IMG/VR virus record: IMGVR_UViG_3300025093_000018
Location: 1 to 64,000 of that record
From: a virus
DNA: 64,000 nucleotides
Strand: one strand, 5' to 3'
Of the stretch, positions 7,509 through 54,682 are shown piece after piece. The translations under genes and the position numbers were made by a program. The number at the start of each line of letters is the position of its first letter. Position 1 is the first letter of the stretch. Under the pieces are notes generated by a model. That model was not told the DNA's origin. It saw only the letters and a list, made by a program, of their open reading frames with translations, and ran no database searches.

Positions 7509-9659
7509 TTATAAACCTGAATTTTTAATAGCCACTGCTTCAGAAACTGCTGTTGCTTGATCTACATAAGCTGAATAAAACACCCCTTTTATTTTTCCTG
7601 TTCCATATAACGGTGAACTATCTAATACTGCCCCTATTGAAATAATGTCGTTTGTTGTACTGTCGTTAAACCAATCATCAGTTAGAGTTGTTATGTCGTA
7701 ATCCGTTACTTCAACACCATCCCAATAAAATTTCATTTGAACTCCATCTTGAACTATTGAAAAAACGCCATAACCAGCATAATCATTTGTAGACCTCAAT
7801 GAAGGTGTACCTCCCCCTAAAGTATGAATAACCCTTAGTTGGTCGCTCCCTGATTGAAACAAAGCATCCCAATATTCGAGAGTTTGTGAACTATCGGCAC
7901 TACCAAACACTATTAAAGCATTTTCATTTTCTACAAAAAAGTGCATTACACCTGTAGAGTCACTACTCCTGAAATTAGCGTAGCTATTTGATAAATACTC
8001 TGGCCCAGCAGCATTGAAATGTAGATGGTCAGCATTCAACGTTGGTTGGTTTGCTGCTGCAGGGTTATTCATTGTAATTTCACCAGTTAAATCAAATCCA
8101 TATGTAGTGGTAGAAATCTCTTCTGTCCAGTTATATGTCCACCCATGTATAATAGGGTTTATTTGATTTAACTTACTCATAGATAGTTGAATATCCATTT
8201 GATATACTCTCATTATATCTTGATGCATTGCTATGACGTCAGCTTCAGATTGGGCAATACTATGATATCCAGATAAAAACCACTCCATATCCCCATAATT
8301 AACAGAACTTCTTATAGATTTACCTATAGTAATATTATCTGTATTTATAGTTAGATCATCAATCCATTGTCCGTTATTAATCCCATTAACATCAACATCT
8401 TGAAAAATTCCATTAATGCATACTTTGTATTCTGTGCCAGTAGATAATACAGTACATAAATATAACGGAAACTGTGTAGTGTTATCATTTGCTACATTTC
8501 TAATTCTGTTATCTCCAGCCCCACCAGTATTTACCCTTAGAATATTATTAGAACCAAAATTTGCAGCTCCGCCCCAATAACGGTTTGTTGTCCCATTATC
8601 TGCAGCAACTAGAGCCATTGTTACTTTTGTGGATTCTGGCTTTAATAACCAAGTAACCATTCCTTGCGAGTCTGACCCCCTCCAATCGCTAGTATGTTTT
8701 TCTACCCCAGTAGACAACCCATTAAAAGTTAATGATGGTAATCCACTAGCTGTAAGAGCTGAACTTGCATTATATGTTGGTTCTTCCCCTGATACACTAT
8801 ATAGATTGTGTTCTCCTGCGTAATCGTTAGCAGCAAAATAATCATCTGTTGCCACATCTCCCACTTCGCAATTAGTTGTATCAACAGTTATACTACTAAT
8901 CTCGTCATAGAATCTCCATTCATTAGCTATATCACTGTTATAGTTATCTGAAGCATTTGAGAATCTGTAGTAAGCAATTGCATTAGCAATAGAACTTTCA
9001 TCTTTAGGAACTCCATTATTATAAATATCTACGATTTGAGGGGCTGTTAATACTCTATTGATCAATAATACATCAGTCATTGAACCATCAAAAAATAAAT
9101 CATCGCCAGCAGAGTTATATTTTCTACAACCAAATCTTCCATTATCCAAACCTGTCATATCATTAAACCAATATTGAGGTTGTCCAGATGTTACATAGCT
9201 TTGTGGAACCGCTACCCCATTAACATAAAGTGTTGGAGTAACTCCATCCTGAACAATAGCAACATGGGTCCACAAATCAGCCACAAATACAGGATTATCT
9301 GTCTCTCTAAGAAATTTAGATGAACCTGCTTCTCGAGCCAACATCCTTAATGTGCCAGATGTATGCATATATAACATAAAATCTGTCTGAGCATCAGTGT
9401 CTCCAAAACAAATAATAACATTATTAGTTAATGGTGTTGGATCAGTAGGTTTAACCCAAACACTCCACGTACCAGTTGTAGTTGTTGCTAGAGGAGTTAA
9501 TACATTATCTGCAACAACAAGTTCATCTGTAGAAACTGTTAAAGCTTTATCTATAGTGTGAGTTTCTGTATTCTCAGCACTCCACATATTTGTAAATGAA
9601 AAGTCCTTGTACACACTACTTAAAGAAGGTGCCATTATATAAGGATTAACTACAAACAT
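7509..9659 (-). CDS. LamG/concanavalin-A domain tail fibre or receptor-binding protein
   Basis: TWSVWVKP...WTHVAIV...LYVNG...FDGSMTDV LamG signature; three lectin-like domains. Confidence 0.75.
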   Translation of the reverse strand: MFVVNPYIMAPSLSSVYKDFSFTNMWSAENTETHTIDKALTVSTDELVVADNVLTPLATTTTGTWSVWVKPTDPTPLTNNVIICFGDTDAQTDFMLYMHTSGTLRMLAREAGSSKFLRETDNPVFVADLWTHVAIVQDGVTPTLYVNGVAVPQSYVTSGQPQYWFNDMTGLDNGRFGCRKYNSAGDDLFFDGSMTDVLLINRVLTAPQIVDIYNNGVPKDESSIANAIAYYRFSNASDNYNSDIANEWRFYDEISSITVDTTNCEVGDVATDDYFAANDYAGEHNLYSVSGEEPTYNASSALTASGLPSLTFNGLSTGVEKHTSDWRGSDSQGMVTWLLKPESTKVTMALVAADNGTTNRYWGGAANFGSNNILRVNTGGAGDNRIRNVANDNTTQFPLYLCTVLSTGTEYKVCINGIFQDVDVNGINNGQWIDDLTINTDNITIGKSIRSSVNYGDMEWFLSGYHSIAQSEADVIAMHQDIMRVYQMDIQLSMSKLNQINPIIHGWTYNWTEEISTTTYGFDLTGEITMNNPAAANQPTLNADHLHFNAAGPEYLSNSYANFRSSDSTGVMHFFVENENALIVFGSADSSQTLEYWDALFQSGSDQLRVIHTLGGGTPSLRSTNDYAGYGVFSIVQDGVQMKFYWDGVEVTDYDITTLTDDWFNDSTTNDIISIGAVLDSSPLYGTGKIKGVFYSAYVDQATAVSEAVAIKNSGL

Positions 9660-48710: not shown

Positions 48711-48814
48711 AACTTATTAACATTAAAATTTATATTACTTTAATATAAGAAAGTTTTTAATAAGGTCAATGGGATTCGCGATTCGCGTATTGCATATCGT
48801 GATATGGAATATTG

Positions 48815-48887
48815 TTACCCCGCTAGGACTCGAACCCAGATCTGCGGGGCCGTAACCCACTGTTTTATCCAATTAAACTACAAGGCA
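48815..48887 (-). tRNA. tRNA-Arg(ACG)
   Basis: Cloverleaf; anticodon arm GTGGG-TTACGGC-CCCGC; GGTTCGAGTCC T-arm. Confidence 0.9.
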
Positions 48888-48893
48888 ATATAG

Positions 48894-48964
48894 AGCACCT
48901 GGTAGGATTCGAACCTACGTCTGAGGTTTTGCAGACCCCTGCCTAGCCACTCGGCCACAGGTGC
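48894..48964 (-). tRNA. tRNA-Cys(GCA)
   Basis: GCACCTG/CAGGTGC acceptor, U73, CT-GCA-AA loop. Confidence 0.92.
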
Positions 48965-48968
48965 GTAG

Positions 48969-49039
48969 CACGACAGGAAGGATTCGAACCTTCATGATAC
49001 GGTTTTGGAGACCGATCAGCACAACCTACGCTCTGAAGT
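48969..49039 (-). tRNA. tRNA-Trp(CCA), atypical acceptor and D arm
   Basis: CT-CCA-AA loop, good T-arm, G73; two acceptor mismatches. Confidence 0.75.
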
Positions 49040-49107
49040 AAATATTGTTATTTATATCCGATTAGTAAGGTTATAAGTGACTAACCAGATATAAATAACA
49101 AGTTTTG

Positions 49108-49190
49108 TAGCCGGGGCGGGAATCGAACCCGCACGTCCTAGGGACAACGGATTTTAAGTCCGTCGCGTCTACCTGTTCCGCCACCCGGCC
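49108..49190 (-). tRNA. tRNA-Leu(TAA)
   Basis: ACGGA-CTTAAAA-TCCGT, long variable arm, A73. Confidence 0.93.
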
Positions 49191-49252
49191 ATAGATTATA
49201 TTTGTTTCATTACCATTCACGTACAGTGAACAGGGACTTTTATTGAACATTG

Positions 49253-49333
49253 TAGCTTCGGTGGGATTCGAACCCACAAACCTCTTGCTTCTAAGGCAAG
49301 GTACTCTTCCATTCGTCTTTACGGCACGAAGCT
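49253..49333 (-). tRNA. tRNA-Leu(TAG), short variable loop, enlarged D region
   Basis: AGCTTCG/CGAAGCT acceptor; CTTGC-CTTAGAA-GCAAG. Confidence 0.8.
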
Positions 49334-49338
49334 ATTTG

Positions 49339-49414
49339 TAGCCCTAGAGAGGATCGAACTCTCTTTTCCGCAGTGAAAACGCGACGTCCTAACCAACAAT
49401 TAGACGATAGGGCC
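49339..49414 (-). tRNA. tRNA-Glu(TTC)
   Basis: GGCCCTA/TAGGGCT acceptor; TT-TTC-AC loop. Confidence 0.88.
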
Positions 49415-49421
49415 ATAAAAC

Positions 49422-49449
49422 AAAAAACCCCGGTGGTTACCGAGGTTCT
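49422..49449 (-). terminator. Attenuator terminator of tRNA operon 1
   Basis: AGAACCTCGGT-AACC-ACCGGGGTTTTTT, ending 7 nt upstream of tRNA-Glu. Confidence 0.85.
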
Positions 49450-49490
49450 TTAGTGTTTAACTTTAAAACTTTAAATTATGTCAATCAAAT

Positions 49491-49577
49491 TCAAATATCT
49501 TTAGCGCATACACCAGAACCTCCGTTGGATTCTTCCAACAGCCATAAACAAAGTTCTAATGTGCGTAATGTTTTCAT
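49491..49577 (-). CDS. Leader peptide 1 MKTLRTLELCLWLLEESNGGSGVCAKDI
   Basis: Hand translation; codons 4-16 are L,R,E,C,W except one Thr; contains antiterminator GAGGTTCTGGTGT. Confidence 0.8.
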   Translation of the reverse strand: MKTLRTLELCLWLLEESNGGSGVCAKDI

Positions 49578-49616: not shown

Positions 49617-50063
49617 TTAATCGTAAACTCGAACTTCTATAGTGTGATTTTTATAAAACTCGTTATTTACATAAGTTCCAGCAGAGTTAACCATTTCATA
49701 ATAAATAGTATTTACATCTTCCCAATACGCTAATACGTGACTATTACCATTTTGTGCTGTATTATTATGAAAAACTGCAGTTTTACCTTCTGTAAATACT
49801 CCAGCTAAGGTCATATAATAACCACCTGGGTACCCAGCATAACTCCAAACAGGTGTTCCTCCTAAAGTATTTTCTAATACAGTAGCATCAGGAGCACTAG
49901 TACCTGATTGTGTTAATGTTGCTGTATATACTCTATAGGGTCTTACAGTCTTATTGGCTAAAGCTATAAGTTCCTCTCTAAGTCTATTAATATCTTTTAC
50001 ATCTTTACCAGTATGTTGTATATTGGCTTTGATAGAATCTGTAGTATCAGATACTTGTCCCAT
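49617..50063 (-). CDS. Putative structural/fibre-tip protein
   Basis: YRVYTATLTQSGTSAP...LENTLG...IEVRVY domain. Confidence 0.55.
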   Translation of the reverse strand: MGQVSDTTDSIKANIQHTGKDVKDINRLREELIALANKTVRPYRVYTATLTQSGTSAPDATVLENTLGGTPVWSYAGYPGGYYMTLAGVFTEGKTAVFHNNTAQNGNSHVLAYWEDVNTIYYEMVNSAGTYVNNEFYKNHTIEVRVYD

Positions 50064-50089
50064 AATTGATTATTTTTAATTAAATTTTA

Positions 50090-50524
50090 TTAACTCTTAA
50101 CTGACCAATCAATTACCATTGCAGCGTCTAATGCGTTAGAAGCGTGAGCATTAAAGATCTTAATAGTAAGGGTATCATCTGTAGGCTCTACTTTAGAGAT
50201 TACAGGCATTCCAGCTCCTGTATAACTAGAGATTACAGCTGTAACAATTGAACCTGTAGTTAGTAAAGTATTAGAAATAGTTAATACAGTTGCTTCTGTA
50301 AGAGCAGCAGTTGATAACGCAGCAGTAGTAGATTTACCAACTGAGTTATTTAATGTAGGTGTTGCACCTGTTGTTGTGTTGTCTGAAGCTTCACCTGTTA
50401 AGTAGTTAGCTACATCAGTCATGAAGTTTCTAAGGGTCGTAGTAAAATCTTTTCTATCTGAATTGTATTGTAAGTCAGCTAAGATTCTAGTTTTAAGACC
50501 CGCGGATCCTGTAATAGTTGCCAT
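50090..50524 (-). CDS. Putative head fibre/decoration protein
   Basis: Thr/Ala-rich 144 aa, codon bias of a highly expressed gene. Confidence 0.5.
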   Translation of the reverse strand: MATITGSAGLKTRILADLQYNSDRKDFTTTLRNFMTDVANYLTGEASDNTTTGATPTLNNSVGKSTTAALSTAALTEATVLTISNTLLTTGSIVTAVISSYTGAGMPVISKVEPTDDTLTIKIFNAHASNALDAAMVIDWSVKS

Positions 50525-50625
50525 AATTTTTTATTTAAAATATTAATTAATATTGTTTATACGACTAAAGAATACAAAAATTTATCGTAAATACAAGGTT
50601 AATTACAAACTATTTAATTTAAGTA

Positions 50626-52890
50626 TTATTTATAAGGTAATAGATTACTCTTTTTTACTGAGTTTGTTTTAAATTCTGGTAATGTATAAGCATTTCCAGT
50701 CTTTAAATAATCTTGTAACTGGGTAAACTTCTCTTTAATCTTGGTATCTTTTAAATATACTTCTCTAGCTTTAGGCCAATATCTAGCCTTTTCAAACTCT
50801 TCTTCAGTTCCTTCAAACATTAATCCCCTGATCTGTCCATCTATCCAATTCTCTTTAAACTGCTCTTTACCATCTCCCTCTCCATAATCTTCCTTAGACA
50901 TTTCCCAATCACGCTCAAAATCTCCTTTATGTTTTTCCAAGAAAGCATCCTCAAATTCTTTTCTATGTTTTTTGTACACTTTATCACTAGTCATACCATG
51001 CATCATATCTAACATGATAGACTGCTCGTTGTTAGTTTTAGGGTCATAGACTATACCATGAGTACCAGGTTTAGGGTGATCATATGAATATCCACTATAA
51101 TAAGTTACTTTTTCTCGTCCTTCTTTAGGACTGAAATACTCTATACTACCAACACCAGTCTTATCTCTTGTGAACTCTGGGTCAGATTTTATAGTAACTT
51201 CACCCATGTTTTTAAATGCTGGATATTTATTATAGATGTTATCAAGCATTACCCCACCTTGTTGATACTTCAATAACACTCCTCCATTCCTTTTTGATTG
51301 TATTGATACAGCTCCAGATACTCCCACCAAAGGTGTTGTAGTGTAAACAGCATTTAAAAACTGTTTTAGGTCTTTTTTATCTAAATTCACTACTAAATTA
51401 GTAATATCATTTGGTAAATCTCCTCCTATTCTACTGCTAGATTTTAATTGATCAATGGCTGCATCAGATATATCCCCACCACTCCATAAGCCCTTTTCTT
51501 TTAGATAGGATAGAGCTCTAACACCTCTAACTTGTTGTTCTGGTTTTTTATTTAAATATTCTATTGTACGAATAACTTGTGGATTATCAGATTGTTGTCG
51601 TATAGTTTTAAAAGGTATCCCTTTCATACTATAGTCAATATTATACGTATTTGAGGCGTGTATAAATTCATGGTTAGCTATATTACTTAACTCCTTATTA
51701 TTAACGTTTTTATCTATACCTAACCAAACATGCGGGTTTTCATCTATAGTAGAAGAAAATCCTAACTGTCTAGTATCTACCCCGGTCATATCTTTATACG
51801 TAACTTCAGTTTTATTTAACTTATGTAAAGCTATTGCTCTAGCTCTCTTAGCATCAGCCTTACTTTCTTTGGCTACAGACATTCTACGTTTTAACCATTC
51901 ATCTGATTTTAACCAATTTTCTTGTTCTTTAAATGCTTTTTGTACTACCTCCAAATTCTTCTTACTTGGTATCACAGTAGGTGTGTTTAATAAATCTTTC
52001 TTTTTATATAATTGCTTATTTATAATATGTTGTTGTTTATCTTTTGGAGACTTTTTAACTATTTCCCAAAACTCTCTATCTTTTGATGTTAATAATTTAA
52101 TTTTATCATTTGATAATTTTAATATATCATCAACTGACTTAATATTATTAGTATTTGTATTTAAAGCGTCATATACATTTTTTACACTACCATCCTGATT
52201 ATAATGTATAGTTCTCTTTGTATCTATCTTTGCTTTACCTTCTGGGGATAAAAAAGAATTAAATATTTCCTCTTCTTTACTATAAATCGGTTTCTTTTTA
52301 GATAAATAAGGTTCTAATTTAGGGTCAAGAGTTGTTTTATTTAGTTTAGGATATATAACTGTTCCTTTATATACTTTAGGTGAAGGGGATTTTCTTAGTA
52401 ATCCTAAACCACTCTTACTTACAGGTTTAACATACTTACCAAGTTTAAGAGTATGCGCTGCTGCACCTATTTCTGGGGCTACAGCAATTACATCTAAAGC
52501 TTGATCAACACCTTCCCAATAAGGGCTCTTAGTGATAGGATTTACATAAGACATTTGAGCGTACATAGCTGAACCTGGGTTTGCGTACATAGTTAAATCT
52601 GCGGCAGTCTTCGCGGTACCTTTTGCTGTCCCTACAGGGTCATCTATAATTCTTGTCATAGAATTAAACGGTGTTATATCACCTAAAAAATTCATAACAC
52701 TATGACCTATTTGATCTAATTCTTCAGTTGTAGACTTAGATTTAACTGTAAATTCTGATAAATCAGGTGCCTGATAAACATCTGTTTTAGGGTTATACTT
52801 AGTTACGGTACCTTTTTTATAAGCTTTTTTATAATCAGAAGTTCCGTATTTAATCCCGCCACCTTTTTGGTATTTTAATAATATACCCAT
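50626..52890 (-). CDS. Multidomain putative cargo protein with zincin-like HExxH
   Basis: ANHEFIHAS...EQQVR; KYQKGG at the N-terminus and KRNGGVLLKYQQGG before the last domain. Confidence 0.6.
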   Translation of the reverse strand: MGILLKYQKGGGIKYGTSDYKKAYKKGTVTKYNPKTDVYQAPDLSEFTVKSKSTTEELDQIGHSVMNFLGDITPFNSMTRIIDDPVGTAKGTAKTAADLTMYANPGSAMYAQMSYVNPITKSPYWEGVDQALDVIAVAPEIGAAAHTLKLGKYVKPVSKSGLGLLRKSPSPKVYKGTVIYPKLNKTTLDPKLEPYLSKKKPIYSKEEEIFNSFLSPEGKAKIDTKRTIHYNQDGSVKNVYDALNTNTNNIKSVDDILKLSNDKIKLLTSKDREFWEIVKKSPKDKQQHIINKQLYKKKDLLNTPTVIPSKKNLEVVQKAFKEQENWLKSDEWLKRRMSVAKESKADAKRARAIALHKLNKTEVTYKDMTGVDTRQLGFSSTIDENPHVWLGIDKNVNNKELSNIANHEFIHASNTYNIDYSMKGIPFKTIRQQSDNPQVIRTIEYLNKKPEQQVRGVRALSYLKEKGLWSGGDISDAAIDQLKSSSRIGGDLPNDITNLVVNLDKKDLKQFLNAVYTTTPLVGVSGAVSIQSKRNGGVLLKYQQGGVMLDNIYNKYPAFKNMGEVTIKSDPEFTRDKTGVGSIEYFSPKEGREKVTYYSGYSYDHPKPGTHGIVYDPKTNNEQSIMLDMMHGMTSDKVYKKHRKEFEDAFLEKHKGDFERDWEMSKEDYGEGDGKEQFKENWIDGQIRGLMFEGTEEEFEKARYWPKAREVYLKDTKIKEKFTQLQDYLKTGNAYTLPEFKTNSVKKSNLLPYK

Positions 52891-52928
52891 ATCTAGGTAA
52901 TGTACAAAAAATTATTAAAAATATAAAG

Positions 52929-53002
52929 TACTCCCGGTAGGATTCGAACCTGGAACCGTCCCCTTAGAAGGGGGATGCTCTATCCAGTTGAGCTACGGGG
53001 CC
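52929..53002 (-). tRNA. Chimeric tRNA-Arg(TCT), probably a fusion of two tRNA genes
   Basis: Perfect D and anticodon arms (TCCCC-CTTCTAA-GGGGA) but T-stem CCAGG/CCTAC and acceptor GGCCCCG/CGGGAGT mispair. Confidence 0.75.
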
Positions 53003-53006
53003 AAAT

Positions 53007-53040
53007 AAAAAAGCCCCGGAACTTTGTAGTCCGAGGCTTC
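53007..53040 (-). terminator. Attenuator terminator of tRNA operon 2
   Basis: GAAGCCTCGGACT-ACAA-AGTTCCGGGGCTTTTTT just upstream of tRNA-Arg. Confidence 0.85.
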
Positions 53041-53064
53041 CTGTTATATATGAATTATTCTTAC

Positions 53065-53157
53065 TTACATATTTACAAATACAGATAGCCGCGGACTCCG
53101 TCTCGAATCGACAGTTCCGTTACTCTTAATGCCTGTATTTATAATTATTGCTTGCAT
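53065..53157 (-). CDS. Leader peptide 2 MQAIIINTGIKSNGTVDSRRSPRLSVFVNM
   Basis: Hand translation; contains antiterminator AGTCCGCGGCTATCTGT; preceded by near-consensus TTATATTGC. Confidence 0.78.
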   Translation of the reverse strand: MQAIIINTGIKSNGTVDSRRSPRLSVFVNM

Positions 53158-53189
53158 GTTGATTGCAATATAAATATTAAATTTTAAAC

Positions 53190-53789
53190 CTAAAAGGTCT
53201 TAGAATAATTTTTTAGCTTTTCTTTATCAGAACTTGAAAATTTAGATGAGTAGGTTAGGTTACCTTCTTCGCTCATTATATAATCCTCTGTACCACTATG
53301 GTATAAACCAAATAGATGTCCAAACTCATGTATAATAACCCTTGAACAATCCTTATTCGAATCCTGAAGACTGAGATCTACAAGGGCTACAGCCTTTAAA
53401 GTACCTATACAGTTAGTATGAGCTGCTCCTATAACATCTTCGTCACTTCTACCTGTAATATACAAACTTATATCGGCCCAATTATTAGTTAACCTTTTAA
53501 TAGAGGCTATTACAGAAAGATACGGGTTATAATCACTACCTCCATATGTAAAGGTAGAAATTTTAAAGTGGATGCCTACTTGAGCATATACATTATTAAC
53601 GTGGATCATAATCTCTTTAAGATCACTATAAGTTTTACTGGATGTGGTATCTACAAAGATATTTACGTTATAATGTTGGGTAGCTACTAACTCCTGCGCA
53701 TTAGATTTCAACACAGGATCAATTTTATATTGCCCTAGTAATGTAAAGCTGCAAACAAATAAGGCTAAAAATAATAAAAGTTTTTTCAT
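53190..53789 (-). CDS. Secreted metzincin (reprolysin/M12-like) metalloprotease
   Basis: Signal peptide; HEFGHLFGLYH plus Met-turn YIMS. Confidence 0.8.
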   Translation of the reverse strand: MKKLLLFLALFVCSFTLLGQYKIDPVLKSNAQELVATQHYNVNIFVDTTSSKTYSDLKEIMIHVNNVYAQVGIHFKISTFTYGGSDYNPYLSVIASIKRLTNNWADISLYITGRSDEDVIGAAHTNCIGTLKAVALVDLSLQDSNKDCSRVIIHEFGHLFGLYHSGTEDYIMSEEGNLTYSSKFSSSDKEKLKNYSKTF

Positions 53790-53859
53790 AATTTAAATCA
53801 TATTTACATTCTCATAGTACTAAGGTAACACTTTTTATTTGAATAAAAAAGTGTAATTG

Positions 53860-53930
53860 TTACCAGGAGAGGATTCGAACCTCTACCTTCTGGACCAAAA
53901 CCAGACGTCCTGCCATTAGACCACCCGGCA
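53860..53930 (-). tRNA. tRNA-Gln(TTG)
   Basis: TCTGG-TTTTGGT-CCAGA; U1-A72. Confidence 0.92.
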
Positions 53931-53936
53931 ATTTTG

Positions 53937-54009
53937 TGGACGAGGGCGGATTCGAACCACCGACGCTAGGCTCTTCAGGCCCACGCTCTACCAACTGAGC
54001 TACTCGTCC
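53937..54009 (-). tRNA. tRNA-Phe(GAA)
   Basis: GGACGAG/CTCGTCC; CT-GAA-GA loop. Confidence 0.93.
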
Positions 54010-54016
54010 AGTTTAG

Positions 54017-54104
54017 GGTGTACGATGGGATTCGAACCCATGACGTGTCACTAACCGTACCGGGACCACAACCCAGCGCCTTCGACCGCTTGGCTACGCA
54101 CACC
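54017..54104 (-). tRNA. tRNA-His(GTG) with G-1 and an 18-nt variable arm
   Basis: G-1:C73; TT-GTG-GT loop; variable region TACGGTTAGTGACACGTC. Confidence 0.87.
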
Positions 54105-54110
54105 ATGTAG

Positions 54111-54192
54111 TGGGACCGGGAGGACTCGAACCTCCAAGCCGTTAGGACCCGGGTTACAACCGGGGACGCTACCAATTACGCTCTACGTTCCC
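54111..54192 (-). tRNA. tRNA-Tyr(GTA)
   Basis: CCCGG-TTGTAAC-CCGGG; extended variable arm; A73. Confidence 0.88.
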
Positions 54193-54308
54193 ATATTATA
54201 TACGATCACATATAATCCCCGATATATCAGGTAATTTTATAATATTATACCCGCTATAGCATGGTTTTATATGTTTTACATATATTATACCCTAATAGGT
54301 ATAATTTG

Positions 54309-54382
54309 TGGAGCTACCGGGATTCGAACCCGGAACCTCTTCCGTGCAAAGGAAGCGCTCTTCCAGTTAGAGCTACAGCCCC
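54309..54382 (-). tRNA. tRNA-Ala(TGC)
   Basis: G3:U70; CTTCC-TTTGCAC-GGAAG. Confidence 0.93.
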
Positions 54383-54387
54383 ATATG

Positions 54388-54461
54388 TAGCGGGGGCGAG
54401 ATTCGAACTCGCGTCCTTCGGGTTATGAGCCCGACGTCCTAGACCCCTAGACCACCCCGCT
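54388..54461 (-). tRNA. tRNA-Met(CAT), initiator-like
   Basis: Three G:C pairs in the anticodon stem (TCGGG/CCCGA); A1-U72 pair. Confidence 0.88.
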
Positions 54462-54464
54462 AAG

Positions 54465-54537
54465 TCGAGTGAGCTGGATTCGAACCAGCGAATTCGTGCT
54501 CCCAAAGCACGCCCGTATAGCCTCTGCGTACCACTCG
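54465..54537 (-). tRNA. tRNA-Pro(TGG), atypical D arm
   Basis: C1-G72, A73; CGTGC-TTTGGGA-GCACG. Confidence 0.83.
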
Positions 54538-54545
54538 ATATAATA

Positions 54546-54577
54546 CAAAAAGCCCGAACTCTTTAAGAATCCGGGCT
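54546..54577 (-). terminator. Attenuator terminator of tRNA operon 3
   Basis: AGCCCGGATTCT-TAA-AGAGTTCGGGCT followed by TTTT, upstream of tRNA-Pro. Confidence 0.85.
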
Positions 54578-54604
54578 AATCAGCTTAGTATATGTATGAT
54601 CACA

Positions 54605-54682
54605 TTATAACACACTAATATCACCCAGAGAGCTAAAGGCCATCGGCTGAAAATAAAATGCGTTATGTTGTGTTTTTCTCAT
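54605..54682 (-). CDS. Leader peptide 3 MRKTQHNAFYFQPMAFSSLGDISVL
   Basis: Hand translation; codons 5-16 are Q,H,A,F,Y,P,M except one Asn; contains antiterminator TCTGGGTGATATTAGTGTGT. Confidence 0.8.
   Translation of the reverse strand: MRKTQHNAFYFQPMAFSSLGDISVL

Follow-up and report, generated by a model that had tools for sequence, protein, structure and literature searches.

Amino acid operons controlled by leader-peptide attenuators include trp, his, leu and pheA, as well as operons with multivalent leaders, such as thr, whose leader carries Thr and Ile codons, and ilvGMEDA, whose leader carries Ile, Leu and Val codons. Leader-peptide attenuation can also act on the decoding machinery, as in the pheST operon of E. 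coli, which is controlled by the pheM leader attenuator. T-box riboswitches follow a different principle, since they bind uncharged tRNA directly and need no open reading frame (ORF). Among tRNA arrays, the nearest published case to the locus described here is the cryptic trn operon of Anabaena PCC 7120, a silent extra array that is induced when translation is impaired and whose promoter is reported to carry direct repeats through which the repressor TrcR controls it (PMC8421152, PMC10272220). A promoter-bound repressor sets this operon apart from an attenuator, and the words attenuation, leader and terminator do not occur in PMC8421152. A literature search returned no published account that links leader peptides, attenuators or antiterminators to tRNA arrays or to the tRNAs of phages. 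The open question addressed here is what phages carry tRNA genes for, and how such genes are controlled.

The DNA analysed, referred to below as the window, comprises 64,000 nucleotides of a marine phage with a GC content of about 34% and is the first part of the 80,990-bp viral record IMGVR_UViG_3300025093_000018, whose completeness is estimated at 42%. Its terminase shares only 21-33% identity with the terminases of crAss-like phages of Bacteroidota, so it has no cultured close relative; a blastn search with 3 kb of the region against cultured phages gave only tRNA-sized matches, and none of the 358 records covers 80% of the query. The window carries three short leaders, of which leader 2, surrounded by genes that all lie on the minus strand, is the subject of this analysis. 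We propose that leader 2 is a ribosome-mediated transcription attenuator, although its working, that is, leader translation and conditional termination, is inferred from anatomy only. It was probably inherited together with a block of about 11 tRNA genes, and a single recombination within a T-loop would then have removed the block and left the switch orphaned.

Judged by analogy, the design of leader 2 is that of the leader-peptide attenuators of amino acid operons, with a short ORF rich in regulatory codons, alternative helices (1:2, 2:3 and 3:4) and a terminator. The features expected of such a system are met, namely a short ORF just upstream, an intrinsic terminator and mutually exclusive helices, the latter as predicted folds; the regulatory codons match what the operon supplies in a related phage, L004, and the window uses the same codon set with the array absent. 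The proposed logic, by which slow decoding leads to read-through, would be shared as well. In contrast to these operons, leader 2 would regulate tRNAs and not biosynthetic enzymes, and its roster, as we call the run of putative regulatory codons, covers nine amino acids, mostly with one to three codons each. The resemblance to pheM lies in the use of leader-peptide attenuation for a decoding-machinery gene of the same amino acid, although pheM is cellular and not from a phage, and governs the synthetase of a single amino acid. With T-boxes, leader 2 would share the sensing of tRNA supply through the choice between terminator and antiterminator, but not the direct binding of tRNA or the absence of an ORF.

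The leader peptide is encoded by a 30-codon ORF on the minus strand (53157..53065; translation MQAIIINTGIKSNGTVDSRRSPRLSVFVNM, followed by a stop), which is homologous to the L004 leader and whose start codon at 53157 corrects an earlier reading. Codons 4-21 (53148..53095, minus strand) form the roster, in which 18 of 18 residues come from the set I, N, T, G, K, S, V, D and R, with all nine kinds present. Across the 161,874 18-codon segments in the six frames of the 80,990-bp contig, a score of 18/18 is reached by 12 segments in 4 places, and together with all nine kinds in 2 places, leader 2 and one at 8351 on the minus strand. The residue set itself is common (frequency 0.594), with p = 8.4e-5 per segment for a run of 18, which counts against the attenuator reading; taken by itself, the roster composition is thus uncommon without being unique. 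According to the initial annotation, leader 2 names eight amino acids for which the window has no tRNA, and the tRNA inventory agrees: ARAGORN finds 11 tRNAs, to which Rfam adds a Glu at 49 bits, and two matches below the Rfam cut-off of 29 (27 and 25 bits) are read as Leu(TAG) and Trp. The anticodons of Glu, Leu(TAG) and Trp were assigned by eye. A by-eye codon-anticodon reading under strict wobble indicates that 3 of the 18 roster codons (GGC, ACT and GTC) need four-way reading by U34 tRNAs, and that CGG has no partner in the array behind leader 2 of L004.

Upstream of the ORF lies a promoter-like -7 box (53165..53172, minus strand), identified by reading the sequence and one T short of TAnnTTTG, which we take to be the Bacteroidota -7 promoter motif. 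An exact box is absent before leader 2 of the window, and is present upstream of leaders 1 (49589) and 3 (54723) and of leader 2 in L004. A scan for sigma-70-type promoters gave 34 sites against 29.6 expected and was uninformative, and its terminator rule missed the leader 2 hairpin.

Predicted folds support both a terminator and an antiterminator in leader 2, as the initial annotation had claimed. The intrinsic terminator (53007..53038, minus strand) is a 9-bp GC-rich stem followed by six T, with a predicted energy of -19.3 kcal/mol, and ends 4 nt before the tRNA-Arg(TCT) gene. The antiterminator (53028..53098, minus strand; -22.0 kcal/mol in the fold prediction) pairs region 2 (53098-53081) with region 3 (53044-53028), which includes the 5' arm of the terminator. 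The roster codons are connected to region 2 by an upstream 1:2 helix, predicted at -22.6 kcal/mol, whose apex is a predicted hairpin inside the ORF (53098..53114, minus strand) with a 5-bp stem and a 7-nt loop. The 13-nt core of this hairpin is identical in L004, and the outer flanking stem pairs have changed on both sides. In both phages (window 53098-53114; L004 449-465) the loop contains TTCGA, in the manner of a tRNA T-arm.

When the first 30 or 60 nt are masked, as they would be by a stalled ribosome, the antiterminator is predicted, and when at least 75 nt are masked, the terminator is predicted. Masking of 45 nt also yields the terminator and not the antiterminator, which is an imperfect fit to the attenuation model. 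Cognate 2:3 duplexes reach -24.2 (window) and -24.0 kcal/mol, and swapping the partners between the window and L004 weakens them to -13.7 and -8.8; cognate 3:4 duplexes reach -17.2 (window) and -18.4 kcal/mol, against -8.5 and -9.9 after the same swap; the observed 2:3 energy was reached by 0 of 500 shuffles. The terminator of L004 (-16.7 kcal/mol) has a T run after its stem, as in the window. The same predicted helices are thus formed from different letters in the two phages, and the alternative helices covary, as far as two sequences can tell. It counts against the model that the minimum-energy fold of L004, in the absence of a ribosome, is already the antiterminator. None of the Rfam leader families reached its cut-off in leader 2 (His_leader 19.2 against 49, Thr_leader 13.7 against 55, trpB motif 18.5 against 59). 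The assignment of leader 2 to the T-boxes or to another known RNA family was also considered, and rejected for lack of an Rfam match in the window.

Inspection by eye also reveals a 6-bp complementarity between the 3' arm of the terminator and the 5' acceptor strand of the next tRNA, in both phages (53012-53020 and 52996-53002 in the window; 544-552 and 562-568 in L004). Where the two phages differ by G-to-A in the arm, the tRNA carries the corresponding C-to-U change. Leaders 1 and 3 display no similar complementarity by eye.

On this anatomy, transcription would start at a host-type promoter and a ribosome would translate the 30-codon ORF. Should the ribosome be slow at any roster codon, region 1 would remain covered, the 2:3 antiterminator would form and the polymerase would enter the tRNA genes. 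Fast decoding would instead bring the ribosome over region 2, so that the terminator would form and transcription would stop 4 nt before the first tRNA.

Relatives in which the locus could be compared are few. Terminase-based searches gave 19 loci (3 viral and 16 metagenomic), two of which, L004 and L008, carry tRNAs according to ARAGORN; Rfam, run on 13 of the 19, adds L016. Beyond the conserved p72-p200-terminase block, only 7 loci reach more than 1 kb further upstream, so most absences of tRNAs are uninformative. The peptidase-like protein encoded upstream of leader 2 (53789..53190, minus strand; Pfam Reprolysin_3 and Peptidase_M10) retrieved no viral locus as a query, and the exact 5' part of the window tRNA-Arg(TCT) had no match. 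A scan with the leader 2 pattern returned one viral contig, that of L004 itself, and no match in the genome collection, in which a terminase profile search found no relative either. The leader 1 pattern occurs in four contigs: that of L004, L044, which is a real relative, and L045 and L046. These last two were rejected as chance matches within coding sequence.

L004, whose terminase is 66% identical to that of the window, is the only relative found with leader 2, which limits the comparative tests to two sequences. Its locus starts with the promoter box, followed by a leader 2 homologue with a 29-codon ORF, a hairpin with a T run, Arg(TCT), a small ORF and further tRNAs. The array behind this leader, array 2, consists of 11 tRNAs: Arg(TCT), Lys, CAT, Gly, Asp, Asn, Ser, Ser, Thr, Ile and Val. 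A leader 1 homologue comes next, then Glu, Leu, Leu, Trp, Cys and Arg(ACG), arranged as in array 1 of the window, and finally the p72-p200-terminase block. ARAGORN finds 17 tRNAs in L004, 14 of which reach the Rfam cut-off (10 of 11 for array 2). Residues 2-19 of the L004 leader belong, in 18 of 18 cases, to the isotypes of array 2, with all nine amino acid kinds present, and Arg(TCT) is here an intact, fully paired cloverleaf. The central prediction of the initial annotation, that leader 2 points to a missing tRNA operon whose Ile, Asn, Thr, Gly, Lys, Ser, Val and Asp tRNAs should be sought at the same locus in relatives, was fulfilled in L004, where all eight isotypes stand behind the homologous leader; with a single relative that has leader 2, the test has n = 1. 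The small ORF between Arg(TCT) and Lys (L004 655-795) has a signal-peptide-like start.

The two other leaders of the window are each followed by their own array. Leader 1 (49577..49491) precedes array 1, with Glu, Leu, Leu, Trp, Cys and Arg(ACG) (48814..49577 as a whole, minus strand; from ARAGORN, Rfam and by-eye anticodons), and leader 3 (54682..54605) precedes array 3, with Pro, Met, Ala, Tyr, His, Phe and Gln (53859..54682, minus strand; from ARAGORN and the roster match). Roster residues match the respective array in 12 of 13 cases for leader 1 and in 11 of 12 for leader 3, and the match between roster and isotypes in three pairs from the window and three from relatives has p = 1e-8 to 8e-5 each. 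Homologues of leader 1 are present in L004, L008 and L044, and the Cys codon of its roster tracks the Cys tRNA, both being present in 3 of 4 copies and neither in L008. The leader 1 region of L008 (488-1044) contains a degenerate Trp-like stretch at about 900-970. Every one of the 20 amino acids is named in at least one of the three rosters, and arrays 1 to 3 together would likewise cover them all. Array 1 directly follows array 2 in L004 and lies 3.3 kb downstream in the window. In L016, an array-1-like tail with Trp and Cys (1-133) is separated from the p72-terminase block downstream of it by 3.9 kb with inserted protein genes, which indicates that the tRNA region is mosaic among relatives.

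Several tRNAs of the window phage are structurally odd; for example, tRNA-His (54016-54103) has a long variable arm and 88 nt in all, and tRNA-Tyr has an A.G mismatch in the acceptor stem. Outside the window, the same contig holds a tRNA-like gene (G000:C1:69853-69964, plus strand; Rfam 46.3 bits) with a 38-nt insert in the anticodon arm, which ARAGORN reads as Ser(CGA) when introns are allowed and which has no long variable arm, as well as a permuted tmRNA (G000:C1:73243-73678; ARAGORN) with a 23-residue tag ending in LAA.

The single tRNA gene behind leader 2 in the window, tRNA-Arg(TCT) (53002..52928, minus strand), matches the tRNA covariance model (Rfam 41.1 bits, cut-off 29) and has the anticodon TCT, but its stems are not fully paired. 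In the ARAGORN drawing, the T-stem has 3 of 5 pairs and the acceptor stem has G.G and C.A mismatches in addition to a G.U pair, whereas the T-stem is complete (5/5) in all of the remaining 10 tRNAs of the contig. The four broken pairs all affect 3' strands located after the T-loop, and a single junction therefore accounts for all of them; this agrees with the earlier description of a tRNA with the 5' arms of Arg(TCT) and a foreign 3' end. The likely junction is the shared 13-mer of the T-loop (52951-52939), which occurs four times in the window, and the non-matching 3' strands lie at 52938-52929. A 3-bp T-stem is also found in Gly(TCC) of L004; weakness of this stem is thus not, by itself, proof that a tRNA is dead.

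The 3' end of the window tRNA, together with the T-stem strand predicted to match it, occurs exactly in 19 viral contigs (L025-L043), where these 3' strands are properly paired with matching 5' strands. The 19 tRNAs comprise 8 Arg(TCT), 7 CAT, 3 Ile(TAT) and 1 Leu(TAG). The discriminator is G in 8 of 8 Arg copies, and A followed by C in the 11 non-Arg copies and in the window. In Aeromonas phage MQM1, Arg(TCT) shares this T-stem and has the discriminator A, and its acceptor 3' strand deviates at a single letter. A blastn search with a 32-nt piece gave, among the 40 matches listed, 21 tRNA-Arg, 13 Lys, 2 Tyr, 1 Ser and 3 unannotated; the query includes 10 nt of the Arg-type 5' part and is therefore biased to Arg. 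More generally, an identical 24-nt T-arm and acceptor 3' end is shared by four anticodon types in the unrelated contigs L025-L043, which suggests a common scaffold or a frequent exchange of tRNA halves.

The place taken in L004 by the tRNAs from Lys to Val is occupied in the window by three protein genes (49617..52890, minus strand; from ORFs), encoding proteins of 754 aa, with an HExxH motif, 144 aa and 148 aa. The 754-aa protein has no Pfam or PHROG family match; among 24 related or fetched loci it matches only L001, a viral locus without tRNAs, and only in its C-terminal part, and in a large protein set it matches 2 other proteins. For the 144- and 148-aa proteins, no PHROG family match was obtained, and no homologue is present in any of the 24 loci. 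The region upstream of leader 1 differs in L004, L008 and L044.

In the reading that we consider probable, leader 2 of the ancestor would have gated Arg(TCT), Lys, CAT, Gly, Asp, Asn, two Ser, Thr, Ile and Val. One recombination, with its junction in the T-loop of the first tRNA, would have removed the block, leaving as a remnant the 5' part of Arg(TCT) joined to the 3' strands of another tRNA and directly followed by the three protein genes. The switch would now be an orphan, either a recent relic or a gate for the protein genes downstream. The census of 3' ends, the discriminators and the MQM1 tRNA leave as donor either a non-Arg tRNA or another Arg allele, and a non-Arg donor fits the ATA codons in the roster. 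A within-array deletion as proposed in the initial annotation, with a non-Arg CAT- or TAT-type tRNA that ended the old array as partner, is slightly favoured, and an exchange with the tRNA of another phage is nearly as likely. The rival to a deletion is a module exchange, in which a crossover between Arg(TCT) and a diverged tRNA of another phage would have replaced the array by foreign genes, in the simplest form through another Arg(TCT) allele followed by the block of the 754-aa gene. This remains possible, since the replacement genes lack homologues in the 24 loci apart from the C-terminal match in L001, but we regard it as rather unlikely. Homology between two Arg(TCT) alleles goes far beyond 13 nt, Arg(TCT) accounts for 8 of the 19 viral tRNAs with the 3' end of the window, the MQM1 allele with its discriminator A comes within one letter of it, and the region upstream of leader 1 is variable as well; however, the A-then-C ending of the window tRNA is that of the 11 non-Arg copies and of none of the eight Arg copies, and no partner genome was found.

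That the tRNAs were not lost and lie in an unsequenced part of the genome, leader 2 controlling only tRNA-Arg and the genes behind it, cannot be excluded with a contig that represents about 42% of the genome and whose last 17 kb hold only the odd tRNA-like gene and the permuted tmRNA. It is improbable, as the array of L004 stands directly behind the homologous leader, the junction in the window tRNA falls exactly where such an array would begin, and the window has array 1, which comes next after array 2 in L004, at a distance of 3.3 kb downstream. The initial annotation had also allowed for an assembly collapse between T-loop repeats that dropped the array from the contig, and the fourfold 13-mer and the modest depth (12.6) leave some room for it. 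This part of the annotation is disfavoured, and we see hardly any chance of it, given that a 61,888-nt Logan contig from a second assembler covers 52300-53700 with no differences and no joints, loose ends arising only from short contigs on the tRNA alone; a repeat of 13-16 nt is, by inference, also too short to collapse an assembly of 31-letter words. Only one public DNA run holds the sequence and it may be the source of the contig, so the Logan check amounts to the same reads under a different assembler. Finally, there may be no attenuator at all, the hairpin being the terminator of the peptidase gene, which ends 152 nt upstream of it, and the ORF a conserved micropeptide or a product of chance. 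The roster composition that is not unique in the contig and the Rfam leader families that stay below their cut-offs are compatible with this, but the agreement of rosters and isotypes in six leader-array pairs, the predicted helices that covary between phages and the promoter-like box between the peptidase gene and the ORF make it very unlikely. The loss of an attenuator-gated block by recombination within a T-loop remains the preferred reading.

A more far-reaching reading, which we hold to be doubtful, combines an ancestral tRNA set for all 20 amino acids, divided among three attenuator-gated rosters that sense the tRNA pool of the host, with a co-option of the orphan sensor. If so, sensing might serve, for example, against host defences that deplete tRNAs, and the transcription of the 754-, 144- and 148-aa genes would depend on the decoding speed of nine kinds of codons.

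If tRNA arrays stand behind a sensor in the style of the trp operon, phages would be gauging the speed of decoding and replenishing tRNAs as needed. The content of the missing array was inferred from the leader alone and then seen behind the homologous leader of a relative fetched later, and the window offers a natural deletion variant, in which the switch is intact and its cargo gone, with two intact switches beside it in the same genome. It also points to tRNA T-loops as recombination sites that reshape the tRNA sets of phages. If the more far-reaching reading is true, leader rosters could serve as records of the tRNA arrays that a phage has lost.
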